DNA of 64,000 nucleotides from contig OZ251506.1 of NCBI GenBank assembly GCA_965242835.1, positions 2,842,130 to 2,906,129 of the forward strand, in the 5' to 3' direction. The translations under genes were made by a program, and so were the position numbers. This DNA is from Vicinamibacterales bacterium (GTDB lineage Bacteria > Acidobacteriota > Vicinamibacteria > Vicinamibacterales > UBA8438). The notes beneath the pieces were generated by a model, which ran no database searches, was not told the DNA's origin, and was given only the letters and a program-made list of their open reading frames with translations. The stretch's first letter is position 1. Every line of letters begins with the position of its first letter. Of the stretch, positions 2,888 to 49,994 are shown piece after piece.

Positions 2888-4213
2888 ATGCGCATCATCT
2901 CGATCACCGCCGGCGCCGGCGGCATGTACTGCGGAAGCTGCATCCGCGACAACACGCTGGCGAAGGCGCTGCGGCGGCTCGGGCACGACGTGCTGCTGGT
3001 GCCGCTGTACACGCCGCCGCGCACGGACGAGCCGAGCGTCAGCGAACAGCGGGTGTTCTTCGGCGGCATCAGCGTCTACCTCGAACAGTACTCCCGCCTG
3101 TTCCGCGGCACGCCGTGGCTGGTCGACCGGCTGTGGGAGGCGCCGTGGCTGCTGCGCGCCGTCTCGCAGCGCGGCGTGCGGACGCAGCCCGAGCAGTTGG
3201 GGGAGCTGACCGTCTCGGTGCTCGAAGGCCGGCACGGCCGCCAGCGCAAGGAGTTCGAAAAACTCGTCCACTGGCTGCGTTCGGAACCGAAGCCGGACGT
3301 GATCGACGTCTCCAACTCGATGCTGATCGCGCTGGCGCCGGCGTTCAAGGAGGCGCTCGGTTGCGGCGTCTGCTGCACGCTGCAGGGCGAGGACGTCTTC
3401 CTGGACCATCTCGACGAGCCGTACCGCTCCCGGGCGCTGGCGCTGATACGGGAGCACGCCCGGTCGGTCGACCGCTTCGCCGCGGTCAGCGACTACTACG
3501 CCGGCCACATGGCGCGGTACCTGCGCATCCCCGGCGCGAAGCTGGACATCGTGCCGCTCGGCATCGACGCCGAAGGCTACCCGGCGGCGGCGCGGGACGA
3601 GTCCCGACCGTTCACCATCGGCCATCTCGGCCGGATCGCGCCGGAGAAGGGCATCCACCTGCTCTGCGACGCCTACCACCGCTTGCGCGCGCGCGGCGGC
3701 CTGGAGGGCTGCCGCCTGGAGCTGGCGGGCTATCTGGGACCGGAGCACCGGGCGTATCTGGACGGCATGCTGCGCCAGGTCCGCGAGTGGGGCCTGGAGG
3801 CGGAGGTCCACTACCGCGGCGTGCTGGAGCTCGACGACAAGGTGGCGTTCCTGCAGCGCCTCGACGTGTTCGCGGCGCCGGCCACCTACGACGACCCGAA
3901 GGGGCTGTCGCTGGTGGAGGCGATGGCGTGCGGAACGCCCGTGGTCGCGGCGCGGCGCGGCACCTACGTCGAGCTGCTCGAGCGCACCGGCGGCGGCGTG
4001 CTCGTGCCGCCGGAAGACGCCGAGGCGCTGCAGGTCGAGTTGTCGCGGATGCGCGCCGACGAGCGATGGCGCGGCGAACTGGCGGCGCGCGCCGCCGCCG
4101 GCGTCCGCGAGCACTACAGCGCCGCGGTCATGGCCCGCCGCGCCGCCGACGTGTATCGGCGCGTCAGTCCGTCGCCGGCGGAAGACGCCGACTCGGGGTC
4201 CGGCCGCGCATAG
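2888..4213 (+). CDS. Glycosyltransferase, GT-B fold (family 1/4)
   Basis: Internal start MRIISITAGAGGMYCGS within ORF 2678..4213. C-terminal motif GLSLVEAMACGTPVVAARRG with EL is typical of the Glycos_transf_1 family. A TATAAT sits at 2844-2849. Confidence 0.85.
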   Translation: MRIISITAGAGGMYCGSCIRDNTLAKALRRLGHDVLLVPLYTPPRTDEPSVSEQRVFFGGISVYLEQYSRLFRGTPWLVDRLWEAPWLLRAVSQRGVRTQPEQLGELTVSVLEGRHGRQRKEFEKLVHWLRSEPKPDVIDVSNSMLIALAPAFKEALGCGVCCTLQGEDVFLDHLDEPYRSRALALIREHARSVDRFAAVSDYYAGHMARYLRIPGAKLDIVPLGIDAEGYPAAARDESRPFTIGHLGRIAPEKGIHLLCDAYHRLRARGGLEGCRLELAGYLGPEHRAYLDGMLRQVREWGLEAEVHYRGVLELDDKVAFLQRLDVFAAPATYDDPKGLSLVEAMACGTPVVAARRGTYVELLERTGGGVLVPPEDAEALQVELSRMRADERWRGELAARAAAGVREHYSAAVMARRAADVYRRVSPSPAEDADSGSGRA

Positions 4214-4865
4214 CGGCCCCGCGCGCAGGATCGCGCGGCCGCGGCCCGCCTTGCCGGGGGCGGGCGCCGTCCCCGTTGCGCCACGTCCAGGCCAGCGCGG
4301 CGAGGATTCCGATCCCCAGCAGCCGCCGCGGACCGCTGACGAAGACGACCGCGCCGTTGGCGATCATGAACACGAAGGCGCCGCGGACCGCCGTGGTCCA
4401 GACGGCGGGGCGCCGCGCATGGTGGAGCGGCCCGAGGCGCCACCAGAGTCCTTCGCCGATCCAGATCGCCGTGAATCCGTAGTTCACCCACAGGCCGCCG
4501 CCCCAGTGGAGGCCGACGAGCGCCTCGGTGCGCGCCGCGGTATGGGCCCAGGCGGCCGCGTGGCTCCAGTCGTGGTGGAGGGCGAAGGCGGCGGCGACGT
4601 GGGCCAGGTAGGCCAGCGCGCCCAGCAGCCAGACGGGCCGCGCCCAGGCCGCCGCCGGCCGCCGCGCGCGGCCGTACTCGCCGGCGGCGTAGAGGGCCAG
4701 CGCGGTCCAGATGGTGACGGCGACGGCGGGGGCGGCGGGCGTCGGCGGATGCACCCCGGGCACCTTACCGCACCCGGCCGCGGCCCCGACCCGATTCCCG
4801 GCGCCGCGGCACGGCCCGCCGACGCCGGTGAGGTCGACGCCCGCCTCCGACATGACGATGCCCAC
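4164..4865 (-). CDS. Hypothetical polytopic membrane protein (start uncertain)
   Basis: About five hydrophobic spans (AVAVTIWTALALYAAG, VWLLGALAYLAHVAAAFAL, GLWVNYGFTAIWIGEGLWW, GAFVFMIANGAVVFV, LLGIGILAALAWTW). Both termini are low complexity. The 3-prime end overlaps the GT gene by 50 bp. Confidence 0.45.
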   Translation of the reverse strand: MGIVMSEAGVDLTGVGGPCRGAGNRVGAAAGCGKVPGVHPPTPAAPAVAVTIWTALALYAAGEYGRARRPAAAWARPVWLLGALAYLAHVAAAFALHHDWSHAAAWAHTAARTEALVGLHWGGGLWVNYGFTAIWIGEGLWWRLGPLHHARRPAVWTTAVRGAFVFMIANGAVVFVSGPRRLLGIGILAALAWTWRNGDGARPRQGGPRPRDPARGAAMRGRTPSRRLPPATD

Positions 4866-42799: not shown

Positions 42800-44486
42800 G
42801 ACGTCGAAGAACGCGGCGTCCGCCGGCCTCGCCCTTGCGGCCCATCCGGTTCGGCGTCGCCGCGCGCCCGACCCACAGGGCGATCTCGAACGGCCACTCG
42901 CCCAGGCGCTCCGGCGCCCGTTCGCGTTCCAGCTCCAGGGCGCAGACCAGCGCGGCGGCCCGGCCGAGCTGATCGAGCGTCAGCAACCGCAACGTGTAGC
43001 GCATCAGCACCGACAAGCCCCGGCCGGCGTCGTCGGGACAGCGCAGGCGGCGGAGCGCGAGCGTGAAGGCCGCGAGTCCCAGATAGGCTTCCGTCTTGCC
43101 GCCGCCGGTGGGGAAGAACAGCGGGTCGACGACGTCGCGTTCGGGGTGCGCGGGGTCGGCGACGCCGCGCAGGTTCATCAGGACGTAGGCGAGCTGGAAC
43201 GGACGCCACGCCGGGGCGGCGACCGCGTGCGGCGGCCGCCCCTGCTCCTGCGCCCGCCGCCGGCGCGCGGCGGCGGCCAGCGCCCGGTTGGCGACGCGGA
43301 ACGCTTCGAGCACGTCCGGTTCGGCCAGCAGATCGATACCGGCCCGGATGCGGTCCGCGGCGGCGCCCGCCCGCCGCGCCAGCTCGTCGGCGACCTGCCG
43401 GCGGCGGCCGGCGAAGGCCGCCGCGGCCCGTTCCTGCTCCGCGACCCAGCCGCGGTACCGCTCCACCAGCGGTTCGAGGCGCGCTCTCGCGGCCCCGGCG
43501 CCATCGAGGCCGCCGAGCGCCTCCATCCCGAACTCCACGCCCTCGATGGGCGACGGCTCGACCCGCGGCACGCCCGCTTGCGGCATCCATTCGGTGCGGA
43601 CGCGGCGGCACGCGCCGTCGACGAGGTCGGCGCAGGTCGAGACGTTGTGGCCGACCGCGTACTCGGCGGCGTCGCGGTGATGCAGGTCGGCCAGGCGTTC
43701 GTCCCAGTCCGCGCTGTCCAGGCCGGTCAGGTCGCGGCGCGGCATCAGCGGGCGATCCGCCTCGACGCGCATCTCGACCTGGAACGCGAACGCGACGTCC
43801 TGCTCTTCGTCGTCGGAAGCCGGCGCCCGGCGGTTCACCGTGAACAGCGAGACCGCCCGGGCCTCCCGGAATCCTTCGAGCGTCCGCACCCGCGTCGGCC
43901 GCACGAGGCAGGCCACGGCGAGGCCGTCCGGCAGTGGGAACGAGGTCGACCGGCCGGCGGGGACGGCATCGAGGTCGACGGCCACGGCGCCCGCGCCGGG
44001 TCTGCGCCTCCAGGGCGCGAGGCGGCGCGAACGCCGGGCGCCGGACGCCACGACACGGCGACGTCAAGGCGCCGGGTCTCCGCGTCCGCCAGGATGCCGA
44101 GGCCCATCGACGACGGCAGGAAGCGCCGCTTGCGGCTGCCGCGATCCGGCGCGCCCGAATCGTCGCCGCCGTGGACCGGCTCGGCCGGCTCGTCGAGTTC
44201 CTCCTCGCTGTCCTGCGCCCGCTGCTCTTCCGGCGCGCCGCTCGGGACCAGAAAACCGGTCAGATACCACCGCGACGGCGCCTGCGGCAGGCGCTCGCGC
44301 TGCAGGGCCGCGTCGTCGGGCCGCGGGCCGAGCAGATCGATCCGCAGGGCGTCGCACAGGTAGCGCCGCACCGAGGCGCCGTCGGGCGGCGGGTTCGCGG
44401 AGGCCCGGGCGCGACCGGTATTCCGACGACCGCATCAGCCGCACCGAGGCGCCGTCGGGCGGCGGGTTCGCGGAGAGAGGGGGCAT
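42800..44486 (-). pseudogene. SF2 helicase remnant, DISARM DrmA-like (N-terminal region + Walker A only); 5-prime duplication, at least one frameshift, 3-prime truncated
   Basis: MPPLSANPPPDGASVR / RRYLCDALRIDLLGP...WYLTGFLVP...SSMGLGILAD (ORF 43835..44371), then the frame of ORF 42594..44051: AVSLFTVNRR, FFPTGGGKTEAYLGLAAF, MRYTLRLLTLDQL, EIALWVGRAATPN. Sense is lost near 42.8 kb. The lower boundary is approximate. Confidence 0.55.
44365..44475. repeat. Perfect 38-bp direct repeat (44365-44402 and 44438-44475), period 73 bp, inside the 5-prime end of the DrmA-like gene
   Basis: gccgcaccgaggcgccgtcgggcggcgggttcgcggag occurs twice. The 73-bp offset shifts the frame and puts a TGA after the first copy. 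Confidence 0.95.
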
Positions 44487-44659
44487 GATGGCGTCCGGTT
44501 TCCGCGCGCGGAAGCGCCCGGCGCCGACGCGCGTCGCGGGCAACGATACCGCAAGCGGCGCGGGCTGTTGAGGGGTCGGTCGACCGGCGGAGTCGCAAGG
44601 CGGCGATTCACGGCAGCCGGCGGGAGGGGATGTAGAATGAAGGGCCGGGAGCGAGAATC

Positions 44660-45118
44660 ATGACGACTGCAACGAGCAGGGAGCCGCGGCTGGCCGCCGA
44701 ACAGATTCTCTGGCTGCGGCGCGGGACGGAAACGACGCCGATGCACGTCCTGAAGCTCGTGTACATCAGCCACGGATGGACGCTCGGGCTGTACGGGCGA
44801 TCGCTCATCAACGAGCCGGCCGAAGCGTGGCGCTACGGCCCGGTGGTGCCCAGCGTCTACCACCGCTACAAGTCGTTCCGCGGAGACGCCATCACGACGG
44901 AGCCGGTGGACCGGTCGGACGCGTTCGACGACGAGCAGCGCGACGTCATCGAGCAGGTTCACGAGGTCTACGGCGACTTCACGGCCCTGCAGCTGTCCGC
45001 CCTCACGCACAAGCCGGGCACCCCCTGGGACGTCACCTACCGGGAATACGGCGCGGGCGTGATCATCCCGAACGAGTTGATCCGGGACTACTACGAGCGT
45101 CTGGCGGAGCAGGCGTGA
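44660..45118 (+). CDS. Panacea-domain (DUF4065, SocA/GepA-like) protein, putative PanA-type antitoxin
   Basis: MHVLKLVYISHGWTLGLYGRSLINEPAEAWRYGPVVPSVYHRYKSF is the DUF4065 core as I remember it; 152 aa. Confidence 0.85.
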   Translation: MTTATSREPRLAAEQILWLRRGTETTPMHVLKLVYISHGWTLGLYGRSLINEPAEAWRYGPVVPSVYHRYKSFRGDAITTEPVDRSDAFDDEQRDVIEQVHEVYGDFTALQLSALTHKPGTPWDVTYREYGAGVIIPNELIRDYYERLAEQA

Positions 45119-45393
45119 CGGCCCGCCGGGGCACGGTGGCCCGCGAACCGACGCCGGAGCCGCGGGCAGCCGCGGCGATCGCCGAGTTGAAGACGCTGAT
45201 CGGCGGCCAACGGGAGGCCACCGGCGACCTTCGCGAGCGCGTGAAGGGGCTGGAGTCCGAGTCGAAGCACTACGCGACCAAGGCCGATCTCGCCAACGTC
45301 AAGGTCTGGGCGATGAGCGGCGTCGTCGCCGCGCTTCTGTCGCTCCTCGTCGCTTTGGGCGTCGCGTTCGTCCGCCTGACCGTCGGCCCCTGA
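45115..45393 (+). CDS. Small coiled-coil protein with C-terminal TM helix (92 aa), GTGA-overlapped with the Panacea gene; candidate membrane toxin
   Basis: GTG 45115 overlaps TGA 45116-45118. ...IAELKTLIGGQREATGDLRERVKGLESESKHYATKADLANVKVWAMSGVVAALLSLLVALGVAFVRL. Architecture resembles DUF1640/XhlA-type proteins. Confidence 0.55.
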   Translation: MTARRGTVAREPTPEPRAAAAIAELKTLIGGQREATGDLRERVKGLESESKHYATKADLANVKVWAMSGVVAALLSLLVALGVAFVRLTVGP

Positions 45394-45579: not shown

Positions 45580-45607
45580 TTGACACGAAAACGGGACCTG
45601 CTATATT
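45580..45607 (+). promoter_or_regulatory. Sigma70-like promoter for higB: TTGACA - 16 nt - TATATT, with the ATG 6 nt after the -10 (leaderless geometry)
   Basis: TTGACA 45580-45585, TATATT 45602-45607, ATG 45614. Lies in a visibly AT-richer 220-bp intergenic region. Confidence 0.55.
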
Positions 45608-45613
45608 TTCGGA

Positions 45614-45907
45614 ATGCGGGTCATCGCGAAGAGGCCGCTCCGCGCATTATGGGAGCGCCATCCGGCAGCCAGGGAGCCGTTGCGCGCCTGGCTCCGGGAG
45701 GTTGAACGAGCGGACTGGGATACGCCGGCCGCGGTGAAGGCGCGGTACCCCGCGGCCAGCATCGTCGGCGGCGGCCGCGTGGTGTTCAACGTCAAGGGCA
45801 ACGCCTACCGGCTGGTGGTGAGGATCCGGTACGAGCTCCGCATCGTCTACGTGCGGTTCGTGGGCACGCACGCGGAGTACGACGCCGTGGACGTCGAGGA
45901 GGTGTGA
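45614..45907 (+). CDS. higB: Type II toxin HigB (HigB_toxin / RelE-fold mRNA interferase family)
   Basis: MRVIAKRPLRALWERHP..A...L.AW...V..A.W..P..VK..YP.AS.VGGGRVVFNVKGNAYRLVVRIRY....VYVRFVGTHAEYD matches the family pattern almost position for position. Confidence 0.9.
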   Translation: MRVIAKRPLRALWERHPAAREPLRAWLREVERADWDTPAAVKARYPAASIVGGGRVVFNVKGNAYRLVVRIRYELRIVYVRFVGTHAEYDAVDVEEV

Positions 45908-45909
45908 AG

Positions 45910-47121
45910 ATGGCCGACATCCGCCCGGTTCGGACCGAAGCCGACTACGAGACCGCCCTCGCCCGGATCGACGAGATCATGGACGCCGATCCCGACAGCC
46001 CCGACGCCCGGGAGCTCGACGTGCTGGTCGACCTCGTCGAGCTGTACGAGAGCAGGCACGAGCCGATGGGGCATCCCGACCCGGTGTCGGCGATCGAGTT
46101 CCGCATGGATCAGGCGGGGCTGAAGCGGCGCGACCTGATCCCGTTCCTCGGAAGCCGCGCGAAGGTTTCCGAAGTCCTGTCCGGGAAGCGCGCGATCACC
46201 ATGCCGATGGCGCGCGCGCTCCACGAGCACCTTGGGATTCCGGCCGACGTCCTTCTGCGCCAGTCCGGAAAAACACCGCGGGACGGGTCGGCGGACGTCG
46301 AATGGACCCGGTTTCCGCTCGAGGCGCTTGCGAAGCGCGGCTGGATTCCGGCCGTTCCCGACCTGGCGGCCCGGGCCGAACAGCTCGTCGGGGGGCTGAT
46401 CGAGCAGGCCGGCGGCCAGCGCGTGGCCGATGCCGCGCTTTACCGCAAGACCGACACCCTGCGCGCGAACGCCAAGACGGATCCATACGCGCTCCAGGCG
46501 TGGTGCTGGCAGGCGTTGGCGGAGGCGGCCGAAAGGCGGCCGGACGTCGACTACGCGCCCGGAACCGTGACGCTCGACTTCCTGCGGCAGGTCGCCCGGC
46601 TGAGCTGCTCGCCGGACGGACCGAAGCGGGCGCGGGAATTCCTGCACGGCAACGGCATACCCTTCGTCATCGTCGAGCACCTCCCGAAGACCTATCTCGA
46701 CGGCGCGGCGCTCCGTCTCGGCGACGGCCGGCCGGTGGTCGCGCTGACCTTGCGCCACGACCGGCTCGACAACTTCTGGTTCTGCCTGCTGCACGAGCTG
46801 GCCCACGTCGGCCGGCACCTGAACGCCGGAGACGATCAGGTGTTCGTCGACGACCTGTCCTTGCGCCGCCTCGAGGGCGGACGCCAGGACCCGCGGGAGA
46901 AGCAGGCCGACGAATGGGCCGAGGAAGCGCTCATCCCGCGCGAGGCGTGGGAAACCAGCGACGTCCGGGAACGCCCGACGCCGATGGCCGTGCTGAGTCT
47001 GGCGCAGGCGTTGCAAGTGCATCCGGCGATCGTCGCGGGCCGGGTACGGCACGACACGGGCAACTACCGGCTGCTGTCGCAGTTCGTCGGCACCGGCGAG
47101 GTGCGGCGGCAGTTCTGCTGA
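45910..47121 (+). CDS. Fusion of HigA-type HTH antitoxin (COG5499-like) with an ImmA/IrrE (COG2856) zinc metallopeptidase domain
   Basis: GAGGAGG SD. N-terminus IRPVRTEADYETALARIDEIMDA..P..PDARELDVLVDLVELYE..H.P....DPV.AIEFRMDQAGL...DL...LGSRAKVSEVLSGKR.ITM.MARALHE.LGIPADVLL. C-terminal half has FCLLHELAHVGRH (HEXXH) and E.QADEWAEEALIP. Confidence 0.85.
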   Translation: MADIRPVRTEADYETALARIDEIMDADPDSPDARELDVLVDLVELYESRHEPMGHPDPVSAIEFRMDQAGLKRRDLIPFLGSRAKVSEVLSGKRAITMPMARALHEHLGIPADVLLRQSGKTPRDGSADVEWTRFPLEALAKRGWIPAVPDLAARAEQLVGGLIEQAGGQRVADAALYRKTDTLRANAKTDPYALQAWCWQALAEAAERRPDVDYAPGTVTLDFLRQVARLSCSPDGPKRAREFLHGNGIPFVIVEHLPKTYLDGAALRLGDGRPVVALTLRHDRLDNFWFCLLHELAHVGRHLNAGDDQVFVDDLSLRRLEGGRQDPREKQADEWAEEALIPREAWETSDVRERPTPMAVLSLAQALQVHPAIVAGRVRHDTGNYRLLSQFVGTGEVRRQFC

Positions 47122-47133
47122 AAGGGTCATCCG

Positions 47134-47463
47134 ATGTCATTCTGGTCTGCCGAAACGCTTGCGAAGAAGCTGCCGGATCTGAAGCTGATCGACCCTTACG
47201 ATCCGGATGCCGTCGACTGTGCGGCCTACACGCTACGGGTGGGCAACGAGGTCTATGTCAGTCCGGATCAGAAAATCAAAAATCCCGACCGGCACACCAG
47301 GCGGACGCTGGCTGACAGGGAGTGCTTTTCCATTCCACCAGGGCAATTCGCGTTTCTCCTGACACAGGAAACCGTCGCAGTGCCGGACGACGCGATCGCT
47401 TTCCTGTCGATCAAGGCTCGCACAAAGTTTCGCGGGCTGATCAACATCTCCGGGTTCCATGTC
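47134..47463 (+). pseudogene. dCTP-deaminase/dUTPase-fold gene, 3-prime truncated (first ~110 codons only)
   Basis: YTLRVGNEVYV, IPPGQFAFLLTQETVAVPDDAIAFLSIKARTKFRGLINISGFHV, then the expected DPGF is missing and the frame reads antisense helicase sequence. Visibly lower GC than the surroundings. Starts 12 nt after the higA-immA stop. Confidence 0.7.
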
Positions 47464-47465
47464 TG

Positions 47466-48424
47466 TCCCTCGAGGACCTTCACGCCGCGGCAGAAGCGCT
47501 GCGGATCGAGGATCTCGAGCAGCGCCGAGAAACTGTTGGAATGGCCGTTGTGAGGCGTCGCCGACAGGAACAGCCGGTGCTCGAAACGCGGCGCCACGTC
47601 GCGGACGGCCCGCGTGGTCTGCGAGTCGATGGCGTAGCGGGCGCCGCTCGACGGCGCGGCGTTGTGCGCTTCGTCCAGGATCAGAAGGGACCGCGGGGCG
47701 AAGTCTCCGAGCCAGTCGCGCAGGCCGGCGGCCCAGGTCTCGTCGATCAGCAGCCGGTGCGAGACCAGAAACCGCGAATGCGTCGTCCAGGGGTTGACCG
47801 CGAAGCCCCGCTCGCGCCGCGTGCGCGTCACGTGCGCGCGGTCGAGGATGGTGAACGCGAGGCCGAAGCGCGCCTCCATCTCGTCGCGCCACTGTTCCAG
47901 CATGGCGGGCGGGCACGCCACCACGATCCGGTCGACGCGCCGGCGCAGCAGCAGTTCGCGGGCGATCAGCCTCGCCTCGATCGTCTTGCCGAGGCCGACG
48001 TCGTCGGCGATGAACAGGTTGACGCGCGGCAGGCGCAGCGCAGCGCCTTCCACAGCGGCTCGAGCTGGTAGGCGTCGATGCGGATCCCGGCGCGGAACGG
48101 CGCCTGGAACAGGTTCGGGTCGGTTGCCGTGACGCAGTTCCACGACAGCGTGCGCAGGTAGGCCGCGAACAGCGCCGGCTCGTCGAATTCCTTCCTGGCG
48201 ACGGCGCTCCAGCCGTCGTCGTCCAGGACCCGCGCGTCCAGTTCGTGCTCCCAGAGCACGGCCAGCGGCTGCCCCTGGGCGTCGTCGTCGAGACAGGACA
48301 GGCGGACGAGCGTCGCCTCGCCGTCCGCGCCGGGTGCCGAGACGTCCTCGACGAGGTAGCGGCGCTGTCGGACGAAGGCCACCCGGCCCGGTTCGGGAGC
48401 GATCCGGCGTTCGCGGCGGTTCAC
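47466..48424 (-). pseudogene. SNF2-family helicase remnant (DISARM DrmD-like): N-terminal region + SNF2_N only, 5-bp duplication frameshift, 3-prime truncated
   Basis: GTG 48424: VNRRERRIAPEPGRVAFVRQRRYLVEDV...RIDAYQLEPLWKAL (frame of ORF 47966..48943), then LRLPRVNLFIADDVGLGKTIEA...LLILDEAHNA...LFLSATPHNGHSNSF..LLEILDP (ORF 47268..48143). No helicase C-terminal domain. Confidence 0.75.
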
Positions 48425-48592
48425 GTGCGCGCGGATCGTATTACGACGTTCGGTACGAGGCCGCGCGGGAGCCGTAGCGGACTTCCGGCGAAGGGCGGCG
48501 CCGCTTCCGGTGGGGGCGGCGCCCCGGCTGGCGGAAGCCGCGGCGGACGAGTAGACTGGCGGGGCGGCTCCGGCCCGAACCATGCTCCGCTC

Positions 48593-48732
48593 GGGAACCG
48601 AAAAGATGCGCCCGTTCCTGACCGCGCCCCTGGCCGCCGGGAACCGAAACAGGATGCGCCCTCGCGGCGGGCAGCTTTCCGTCGCCGTCCCGCCGACGCC
48701 CCTGGCCGCCGGGAACCGAAACAGGATGCGCC
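48593..48732 (+). repeat. Triplicated translation-start region of the CMD gene (three in-frame ATGs at 48606, 48654, 48726, each preceded by gggaaccgaaa(c)a(g)g)
   Basis: Perfect 34-bp repeat cccctggccgccgggaaccgaaacaggatgcgcc at 48627-48660 and 48699-48732 (period 72), plus a shorter, diverged copy at 48593-48612. Confidence 0.9.
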
Positions 48733-49994
48733 TGTTCAGGATCGCGGCGCTGGCCGCCGCGCTCGCCGTGGCGGCGCCCCCCGCCGTGCCGCGGGCGGCG
48801 GGGACCGCCGCGGCGCAGGATCCGGTGGTCGCGCCCGCGCCGCCGCGGGTCGCGCCGATCTCCCCGGATGACCCGGCCGCGTGGACCGGCGAGGTGCGCG
48901 CGGGGCTCGCGTCGTTCGGCGGCGACCCGGAGCGGGCGACCAACCTGCTCCGCGCACTGGCCCGGCATCCCCCCGCGCTGCGCGGCCTCGGACCGCTCGC
49001 CGCCTACCTGCGCCGGCGCACCATGGTTCCGGCCGTGGACCAGCTCCTGATGGGGCTGCGCGCCGCCTGGCTGTGCCGTTCCGAGGCGACGTGGGCGGAG
49101 CTGGCCGCCGAGGCGCGCGGCTTCGGACTCGGGGACGCCGACCTGCGCCGGGTGGCGGAAGGGCCGGACGCCGGGTGGGGGCCGTGGGACGGCCTGATGC
49201 TGCGCGCGATGGACGAGCTGCACCGCGACGCGTTCCTGAGCGACGCCTCCTGGGACGAGCTGGCGACGCGCTACAACGCGCCGCAGCTCGTCGACACGAT
49301 CTTCGGCGGCGCGGAGTTCGTCCTGCTGGCGACGCTGGCCAACGCCCTCGGCGTGCGGCCGGACGAGCGGTTCGCCGACCGCCTGCCGGCCGGCGTCGAG
49401 CGCGCGGCCGGCCCGGCCCGCGCGGCCCCGGCGCGTCTCGGCGCGCCGCGGCTGGACCCGCTGCCGCGCGGCGCCTGGTCCGACGAGGTCCGCGGTCTGC
49501 TCGATCCCGGCGGCGCCGGCCGCCCGGTGTCCGCCTTCGACGCCACGCTGGCCCGCCACCCGGCCCTCCTCCGCCCGTGGGCGGTGCGGTCGGCCTACGT
49601 CCGGAGCGGCTCCACGCTGTCCGGCCGCGCGCGCGGGATCCTGATCCTGCGCAGCGCCTGGCTCGGCGGGTCGGAGTCCGGGTGGTCGCGGCACGTGGAG
49701 GCGGCGCGGCGGGCCGGGATGACCGGCGGCGAGATCCGGCGGGTCGCGGCGGGCGCGGATGCGCCGGGCCGGGACCCGTTCGAAGCGGCGCTTCTCCGGG
49801 CGGCGGACGAGCTGCACCGCGGCGCCGCCGTCTCGGACGCCACCTGGGCGGCGCTCGCCGCGCGCTACGGCGCGCCGGCGCTGATCGACGTCGTGATCAC
49901 CGCCGCCGCCGCCCGGGCGTCGGCGATCGTCCTCAACTCGCTCGGCGTGCCGCCGGCGCCCGGAGGTCCGCGCTTTCCCGACGCGCCGCGCTGA
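48726..49994 (+). CDS. Carboxymuconolactone decarboxylase (AhpD-like) family protein, two CMD domains, secreted
   Basis: Third ATG gives the signal peptide MRLFRIAALAAALAVAAPPAVPRAAG. Two similar halves (..LMLRAMDELHRDAFLSD..WDELA..Y....LVD.. and ..ALLRAADELHRGAAVSD..WAALA..Y....LID..). Confidence 0.8.
   Translation: MRLFRIAALAAALAVAAPPAVPRAAGTAAAQDPVVAPAPPRVAPISPDDPAAWTGEVRAGLASFGGDPERATNLLRALARHPPALRGLGPLAAYLRRRTMVPAVDQLLMGLRAAWLCRSEATWAELAAEARGFGLGDADLRRVAEGPDAGWGPWDGLMLRAMDELHRDAFLSDASWDELATRYNAPQLVDTIFGGAEFVLLATLANALGVRPDERFADRLPAGVERAAGPARAAPARLGAPRLDPLPRGAWSDEVRGLLDPGGAGRPVSAFDATLARHPALLRPWAVRSAYVRSGSTLSGRARGILILRSAWLGGSESGWSRHVEAARRAGMTGGEIRRVAAGADAPGRDPFEAALLRAADELHRGAAVSDATWAALAARYGAPALIDVVITAAAARASAIVLNSLGVPPAPGGPRFPDAPR

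Follow-up and report, generated by a model that had tools for sequence, protein, structure and literature searches.

The question raised by this locus is whether a gene of the Panacea family and the small gene overlapping its stop codon form a toxin-antitoxin (TA) module whose toxin acts on membranes. The locus occupies positions 44660 to 45393 of a 64,000-nucleotide stretch of contig OZ251506.1 from a Vicinamibacterales bacterium, which is called the window in this report. An earlier note, made from the DNA letters, had proposed the two genes as a candidate pair of the PanA-PanT kind. Our answer is that panA and the open reading frame (ORF) of 92 codons probably constitute a type II TA module of the PanA-PanT type with a putative membrane toxin. 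The two genes form a conserved, translationally coupled bicistron, and the pairing recurs across phyla. The first product is a standalone Panacea domain, and the second is a small, tail-anchored helical membrane protein. The elements of the pair are as follows.

44660-45118, plus strand: panA, the putative antitoxin gene, encoding a standalone Panacea (DUF4065/SocA-like) protein of 152 residues without an extra N-terminal domain.
45115-45393, plus strand: the candidate panT, encoding 92 residues, disordered at 1-16, with a heptad-patterned helix at about 18-63 and a C-terminal transmembrane (TM) helix at about 64-88; tail-anchored.
45106-45118, plus strand: the translational-coupling junction as read from the sequence, with GGAG at 45106-45109, the GTG start at 45115-45117 and the panA TGA at 45116-45118.
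45220-45306, plus strand: the family core motif, residues 36-64 of the small protein, TGDLRERVKGLESESKHYATKADLANVKV.
45304-45378, plus strand: the region coding for the predicted TM helix, residues 64-88, VWAMSGVVAALLSLLVALGVAFVRL, as judged from Kyte-Doolittle hydropathy and AlphaFold2 (AF2).

The panA gene begins with ATG at 44660 and ends with TGA at 45116-45118, and a GTGA overlap joins this stop to the start of the small ORF, with GGAG 5 nt before the GTG. The coordinates and lengths of the two ORFs in the earlier note proved to be exact. At the equivalent position the relatives show GGAGC(A/C)GGCATGA. The existence of the small ORF alone proves nothing, because chance ORFs are plentiful in window DNA of 73% guanine plus cytosine (GC): 49 ORFs of at least 40 residues were found in 6 kb around the site. 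We then compared the GC content by codon position. The values at positions 1, 2 and 3 were 0.64/0.45/0.92 in panA (third-position GC, GC3, 0.915) and 0.72/0.53/0.91 in the small ORF (GC3 0.914). In the upstream extension of the small-ORF frame (44776-45114) the values differed (0.94/0.66/0.43), and coding therefore starts at the overlapping GTG. An ORF of 205 residues (44776-45393) was considered as the real gene and was rejected, its upstream part having a non-coding codon-position GC.

The PanA protein matched the Pfam profile SocA_Panacea (PF13274) over profile positions 2-112 of 113 with 70.9 bits (E 2.2e-19), which passes the gathering threshold of 25.7. At E<=1e-5, 499 homologues were found, one of them 100% identical and located on an NCBI contig. 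The AF2 model was a compact alpha/beta domain with a mean predicted local distance difference test (pLDDT) of 95.9. Searches of the PDB with PanA by sequence and by fold gave no relative, the top Foldseek E value being 0.21. The motif WRYGPVVPSVY is present in the window PanA; the mutagenesis primers for the V. harveyi PanA encode KFGPSVPSVYF, in which S is the introduced V64S (Kurata Dataset S3, PMC8832971).

The small protein consists of a helix ending in a hydrophobic segment. Over residues 64-88, approximately, the Kyte-Doolittle averages of 19 residues were 2.0-2.53, and the topology is tail-anchored because only 4-5 residues come after this segment. When the seven heptad registers were compared over residues 18-64, one gave a hydrophobic excess at the a and d positions of +3.37 Kyte-Doolittle units, and the other six gave -2.3 to +0.7. 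The AF2 model, built from an alignment of 16 sequences, showed disorder at 1-16 and a single helix at 17-89 with a mean pLDDT of 67.7, the hydrophobic end being the most confident part (82-88). The coiled coil and the single C-terminal TM helix of the earlier note were thus recovered, the coiled coil being judged from the heptad register and the AF2 helix and not from a dedicated coiled-coil predictor. We also considered whether conservation is concentrated at the heptad a and d positions, and this was rejected; the enrichment was found for hydrophobicity only.

A collection of 5.8 billion proteins yielded 29 homologues of the small protein with 50-99% identity, all metagenomic and unnamed. 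All of them begin MT..., and their insertions and deletions are always whole codons or repeat units. The homologues differ in length by in-frame duplication of internal units, among them LRERVKALE... and YATKADLAK. Together with the GC3, these homologues and their in-frame indels mark the small ORF as clearly coding. Residues L39, R40, E41, R42, L46, E47, K51, H52, Y53, A54, K56, A60 and K63 are invariant in the close family. The ratio of nonsynonymous to synonymous substitution rates (dN/dS) among close relatives was 0.47-1.2 for the small gene and 0.26-0.5 for panA in most pairs; in two very close panA pairs (dS below 0.04) it was above 1. The small gene is the faster-evolving partner, yet the core motif is kept across phyla. 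The codon-level conservation, whose absence the earlier note had named as refuting, was mixed: the core motif speaks for it, and the dN/dS values do not.

A separate observation concerns the helical part, which varies by tandem duplication of units of 10-35 residues (LRERVKALET..., DYATKADLAK...), with up to several copies in remote relatives. Examples are locus L008 4456-4809, locus L002 5001-5384 and proteins P0012, P0029, P0166 and P0173 (loci are numbered here with L and proteins with P). The length of the stalk thus appears, from these sequences, to be free to vary.

The association of the two genes was approached from both sides, and the locus sets are biased in that each was found via PanA or via the small protein. 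Starting from the small protein, all 7 loci that were found, and every place examined in all (L001-L006, L088/L089 and L102-L104), had an overlapping Panacea gene upstream. The two genes share 4 bp in L001-L006 and in L088, and 11-38 bp by the gene calls in L102-L104; the overlap reads ATGA in L001-L006 and L008. Starting from PanA, a scan with one genome per species, mostly metagenome-assembled genomes (MAGs), gave 80 loci with PanAs 34-87% identical. A homologue of the small protein stood in the downstream slot at 25 of these 80 loci, with gaps of -38 to +5 nt, the 4-bp overlap being the commonest. The 25 loci belong to Vicinamibacterales, Alphaproteobacteria, Spirochaetia, Binatia, Chloroflexota, Latescibacterota and Pseudohongiella MAGs. 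The earlier note had made its proposal depend on conservation of the small ORF beside Panacea homologues, and this conservation was found from both directions. Reciprocity in the sense of Kurata, that is, toxin homologues adjoining PanA, holds for the close and mid-distance family; the remote relatives (P0165, P0170, P0175 and L096-L101) differ. The partners found in the downstream slot of the 80 loci are listed below.

Class A, 25 loci: the window family, with a single C-terminal TM helix.
Class B, 19 loci: about 115-125 residues, with one clear hydrophobic helix and, in most cases, a second that is weaker.
Class C, 6 loci: two TM helices.
Class D, 5 loci: a weakly hydrophobic C-terminus.
Other partners, the remaining loci: singletons or decayed.

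A small TM protein occupied the slot at 50 or more of the 80 loci. Class C includes the pair of Pseudarcicella hirudinis E92 (L085), and the PanAs there are 35-40% identical to the window PanA. This pair is listed as cluster T3 with a gap of -17 in Kurata Dataset S1 (PMC8832971), and the overlap found here equals that gap. The E. coli member of T3 is a validated membrane-disrupting toxin (PMC8832971). The window small protein thus sits in the slot that a validated toxin family fills beside related PanAs. This equivalence of slots and the swapping of partners, which is typical of TA modules, support the PanA-PanT reading. Reciprocal association, the coupled bicistron and the T3 partner in the slot of related PanAs thus bear out the candidate pair.

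The decay of the two genes was also compared. An intact PanA stood beside a truncated or frameshifted partner at L009, L020, L023, L024, L026-L028 and L063, and where PanA itself was broken (L021, L081) the partner was broken or absent. The asymmetry is suggestive.

In other phyla the neighbourhoods of the pair are mobile or defence-related. PanA homologues with 50-68% identity (loci L008-L087) were scattered over many phyla of uncultured bacteria. Among the names of the host taxa, several recall sponge symbionts (Poriferihabitaceae, Porisulfidus, Latescibacterota, Binatia), and one match lies in a Cenarchaeum-labelled MAG; judged by these names, the distribution suggests horizontal spread of PanA within one habitat. 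A contig of 68,243 bp (L104), marked as circular and assigned to Chloroflexota, carries a pair of PanA and class A together with many small unannotated genes; this element is a possible plasmid or phage-plasmid carrier of the module.

We next consider how PanA could recognize its partner. Class A and class B partners, whose membrane parts are unrelated, share the first 36 residues or so only (hhalign 83.5%, E 8e-6), and a hidden Markov model of the class A N-terminus scored class B members at 12-16 bits, the maximum in 3900 shuffles being 9.4. The shared segment fits a common site for docking to PanA. For the membrane toxin PanT-D11, direct neutralisation by a standalone Panacea protein has been shown (Ernits et al. 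2023, PMC10440598). The PanA residues Y56, just before beta2, and H120, at the end of alpha5, touch the unstructured N-terminal region of that toxin and the helix ahead of its TM segment (PMC10440598). In the model of the window PanA, the invariant Y59 stands immediately ahead of strand two (60-62), and helix five (109-117) finishes with the invariant H117.

On this basis, the action of the module may be pictured as follows. The small protein would be the toxin, and PanA would bind its cytoplasmic N-terminal segment and helix and hold it inactive. When PanA is lost, titrated or triggered, for example upon phage infection or loss of the locus, the freed protein would insert into the membrane through its C-terminal helix. 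It might then oligomerise through the heptad-patterned helix and depolarise or permeabilise the inner membrane. The outcome would be growth arrest or abortive infection, and the role of the module one in defence or addiction.

Several points weigh against this reading. For this partner family we infer toxicity, neutralisation and complex formation by analogy. The matching of Y59 and H117 to Y56 and H120 follows the positional description in the paper rather than an alignment and is to be taken as provisional. The comparison of the window family (class A) with the T3 representative (class C, L085) gave an hhalign probability of 3.8%, so that no similarity was seen. The whole-gene dN/dS of the small ORF, given above, is high; the strong GC3 bias depresses dS, however. 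The decay asymmetry is suggestive rather than statistical because the sampling of loci was biased. Furthermore, the small-protein family had no match in phages (50,697 records), plasmids (tblastn) or IMG/VR (pattern scans), and because of this the mobility of the module can be judged from its neighbours only.

The alternative that survives best is that the small protein is not toxic and the pair is no TA system. The small protein would then be a membrane anchor, sensor or regulator which localises or controls PanA, or which relays cues from the membrane or a phage. Panacea has been proposed to be primarily a sensor (Ernits et al. 2023, PMC10440598), and Kurata Dataset S1 (PMC8832971) contains 1004 Panacea proteins without a predicted toxin. 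A fast-evolving gene whose helix varies in length by repeat expansion would suit such a role, and the toxicity of the product is a prediction. Against this stand the T3-cluster partners that related PanAs hold in the equivalent slot, from a cluster with a validated toxin, and the repeated truncation of the partner beside an intact PanA. The membrane family is also coupled elsewhere to a different small soluble protein, as in TA networks. Taken comprehensively, we consider the non-toxic role unlikely and prefer the reading as a TA module.

We then asked whether the pair belongs to the defence systems in its neighbourhood, in which the following elements were found.

44633-44638, plus strand: TAGAAT, which stands some 22 nt ahead of the panA ATG and may be a -10 element; a weak assignment.
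45580-45607, plus strand: the promoter of the next module, TTGACA-16 nt-TATATT, with 11 of 12 matches to the consensus; 0.1 such sites are expected in shuffles.
45614-45907, plus strand: a HigB-like gene (PADLOC PD-Lambda-2_A, E 1.1e-41; Pfam HigB_toxin).
45904-47121, plus strand: a gene for a helix-turn-helix (HTH) and M78 peptidase protein of 405 residues (PADLOC PD-Lambda-2_B, E 3.4e-141; Pfam HTH_31 and Peptidase_M78).
42822-44401, minus strand: a drmA remnant, divergent from panA, covering codons about 4-555 of about 1130 in tblastn with the intact DrmA of L002.
47268-48943, minus strand: a drmD remnant, the first 330 codons or so, frameshifted.

Upstream of panA, a scan for consensus sigma-70 sites found no full promoter. 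TAGAAT, TAGGAT or TAGTAT occurs at a similar distance 5' of panA in L008, L006 and L001, and the intergenic region is poorly conserved overall among the relatives compared. No convincing operator-like inverted repeat or terminator was found around the pair. Because the next module has its own promoter at 45580-45607, panA and the small gene form a separate transcription unit.

The genes of this next module overlap as GTGA at the HigB-like stop and the M78 start. The earlier note had placed the pair in a defence island before a HigBA module; the context was right, and the two genes match PD-Lambda-2 A and B, with DISARM present as remnants only. An ORF at 47134-47553 on the plus strand encodes 139 residues resembling dCTP deaminase (Pfam DCD, E 4.6e-10, profile positions 3-103 of 153) and had no PADLOC match, the PD-Lambda-2 C model included. 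Located where the GC content dips, this ORF overlaps the truncated end of drmD, and it may represent a piece of a third PD-Lambda-2 gene or of some other defence gene.

In the drmA remnant there is a frameshift or small deletion at 44048, and a piece of 485 residues matches PADLOC DrmA (E 5e-84). Compared with L088, L008 and L002, the remnant shows indels. No drmB, drmC or methylase gene was found in the window, and the set that defines DISARM (drmA, drmB and drmC with a methylase and/or drmD) is incomplete there. The relatives L002, L006 and L008 have an intact drmA (1130 residues, PADLOC E 4e-270), behind which drmB begins and continues beyond the end of the fetched DNA. A strain with 99.4% identity (L088) shows different deletions and retains a drmB fragment. 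DISARM is thus on its way out, with panA, the small gene and the PD-Lambda-2 genes remaining undamaged beside it. Beyond the island, housekeeping genes lie on the flanks.

It could be supposed that the pair serves the adjacent DISARM as an accessory or a regulator, for instance by controlling drmA or guarding it. All close Vicinamibacterales relatives place the pair divergent to drmA-drmB, between drmA and genes for an MmeI-type methylase or a helicase, and an orphan PanA at L031 is also next to drmA-drmB. However, drmA occurred within 4 kb at only 3 of the 80 PanA loci (L008, L009 with a remnant of 32 residues, and L031), all in Vicinamibacterales MAGs, and at none of the class A loci of other phyla; the link therefore seems to reflect common descent within a defence island. 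In addition, DISARM is largely deleted in the window and L088, where panA and the small gene are intact, and no paper linking DUF4065 with DISARM was found in the literature searched. We regard an accessory role as quite improbable, and the module looks autonomous, being part of neither the neighbouring DISARM nor PD-Lambda-2.

At the locus L031, from a Vicinamibacterales MAG, a PanA with 60% identity and without a small partner (4001-4456) lies head-to-tail about 70 nt upstream of drmA-drmB (to about 8000), which is a second and different juxtaposition of PanA and DISARM.

The small protein might also be an XhlA-like protein of phage lysis, or a holin accessory, left by a prophage, with PanA as a mere phage-associated neighbour. 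The earlier note had called the small protein XhlA/DUF1640-like. It had no match in curated Pfam, NCBIfam, PADLOC or annotated PHROG families. The best PHROG match was phrog_1103, of unknown function, found with 20 of 26 family members (best E 6.6e-5), and sub-threshold matches to Synaptobrevin were found with 14 of the 26. As for XhlA (PF10779), 10 of the 26 relatives matched, with a best E of 0.02, and the window protein itself gave no match at E<=1. DUF1640 (PF07798) had no match among the 26 members at E<=10. The likeness named in the note thus holds for the architecture and fails for family membership.

The recurrence of weak matches to XhlA and to 'hemolysin' PHROGs would fit the phage-lysis origin, as would the 68-kb circular element L104, the occurrence of remote relatives near phage-like genes in some cases, and the name "uncharacterized phage-associated protein" given to PanA homologues by the Joint Genome Institute (JGI). 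Against it, all XhlA scores lie below the gathering threshold of 34.7 bits, the highest, 21.4 bits, coming from a remote member (P0166). No endolysin, holin or structural phage gene lies near the window pair, and the searches of the phage records and IMG/VR gave no match. Finally, a gene coupled so tightly to PanA, by 4 bp and across phyla, looks like one half of a dedicated pair, and we consider the phage-lysis origin very improbable.

That PanA acts as in SocA-type (type VI) systems, as a protease adaptor which delivers its partner to ClpXP instead of neutralising it by binding, is the most improbable of these alternatives: SocA_antitoxin (NF047745) was the sole NCBIfam match of PanA (E 3.5e-22), but its 78.9 bits fall below the equivalog cut-off of 190, the partner is not SocB-like, and the complexes that published PanATs form are read by their authors as direct neutralisation of type II (PMC8832971).

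We extended the small-protein family from the PanA-PanT-type pair to remote relatives. A profile search of 1.84 billion cluster representatives gave 441 clusters (50% identity) at E<=1e-3, which share the core RLxxLE...HLATKEDIQKLKVWVLGGV and a TM helix and align to class A with an hhalign probability of 99.2%. The ten clusters that were looked up were environmental sequences, and a scan of metagenomes for the remote subfamily gave 6 loci. None of the remote members examined adjoins PanA; the gene coupled to them, in most cases with an overlap of 4 bp, encodes a conserved soluble protein of about 90 residues, which had no match in Pfam, PHROG or PDB. This protein and the remote relative are, from their arrangement, a candidate for a new two-gene TA-like module. 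One effector family with two unrelated upstream partners is, by analogy, what would be expected in TA networks (PMC10440598).

The protein of about 90 residues carries the features MRVFAVVLNEANPDV...YSGYSSRSLWEWL and was seen at loci L090-L101, for example at L090 3732-4004 and 4001-4243. Its pairs with remote relatives are sometimes near phage-like or methylase genes.

From these data we tentatively put forward the possibility of a large unannotated superfamily of tail-anchored coiled-coil membrane toxins, comprising the 441 clusters and found almost entirely in uncultured bacteria. Such toxins would be modular, with a conserved effector (heptad helix, HxATKxD motif, C-terminal TM helix) and an exchangeable N-terminal docking segment that chooses PanA or the antitoxin of about 90 residues, and the segment that docks to PanA would also occur in an unrelated class of toxins with two TM helices.

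If the small protein is toxic, a widespread and currently unnamed membrane-toxin family joins the Panacea network, which illustrates most clearly how a single antitoxin domain neutralises a multitude of unrelated toxins. The effector family with two partners, together with the 36 or so shared N-terminal residues, would give a testable handle on recognition by standalone Panacea domains, that is, a portable docking segment. By staying intact beside a decaying DISARM, the module behaves as an addictive module would be expected to behave in a defence island. The current picture of TA systems would be extended by this and not changed.

We finally compared the pair with known systems. Small coiled-coil proteins with one C-terminal TM helix are known in XhlA, a 'haemolysin' associated with lysis in phages of the PBSX/SPbeta type. 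The XhlA arrangement carries the coiled coil at the N-terminus; unlike it, the window partner is sub-threshold, has no lysis cassette and is coupled to Panacea instead of a holin or amidase. In the SocAB system (type VI TA, Caulobacter), SocA serves as an adaptor for ClpXP, and SocB acts on the sliding clamp of DNA polymerase. The antitoxin there likewise has a Panacea/SocA-like domain, but the window partner is a membrane protein and the equivalog score is not reached.

The closest systems are the membrane-targeting PanTs, of which three have been validated: T3 (E. coli), T12 (Bartonella) and T4 (Helicobacter) (Kurata et al. 2022 PNAS, PMC8832971). T3 and T12 have a charged N-terminus followed by C-terminal TM segments, and T4 has an N-terminal coiled coil and C-terminal TM helices (PMC8832971). 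The statement of the earlier note that this toxin type had not been described as a PanT was therefore too strong. In these systems and in the window pair, a standalone Panacea gene comes first and a small overlapping gene second, and the partner begins with a charged or disordered stretch, continues as a helix and ends in one or more TM segments. T4 likewise combines a coiled coil with C-terminal TM helices, and PanAs of the window clade carry a T3 partner (L085). The window partner differs in its single TM helix at the extreme C-terminus and in its own core, LRERV..LE...HYATKxDLxNVKVW.

A Pseudohongiella isolate is listed under T12 (PMC8832971), and a Pseudohongiella MAG (L019) carries the window small-protein family. 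Identity of this family with T12/D11 (WP_077993242.1), compared by description only, is nevertheless doubtful, because the published D11, with a short helix before the TM segment, fits class B better. A tblastn search of plasmids with PanA gave no Bartonella or Thalassospira record. The kind of system is thus already known; the partner is an unannotated sequence family that may be new, set apart from T12/D11 and T4 (WP_095295403.1) by descriptions only.

In the RosmerTA toxin RmrT-D5 and the Panacea:D5 pairs, one family of membrane toxins is neutralised by different antitoxin families (Ernits et al. 2023, PMC10440598). The alternative partner of about 90 residues is unlike those antitoxins in having neither an HTH nor an ImmA domain. 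The arrangement is alike by description, since the tail-anchored family found here is coupled either to PanA or to that protein.

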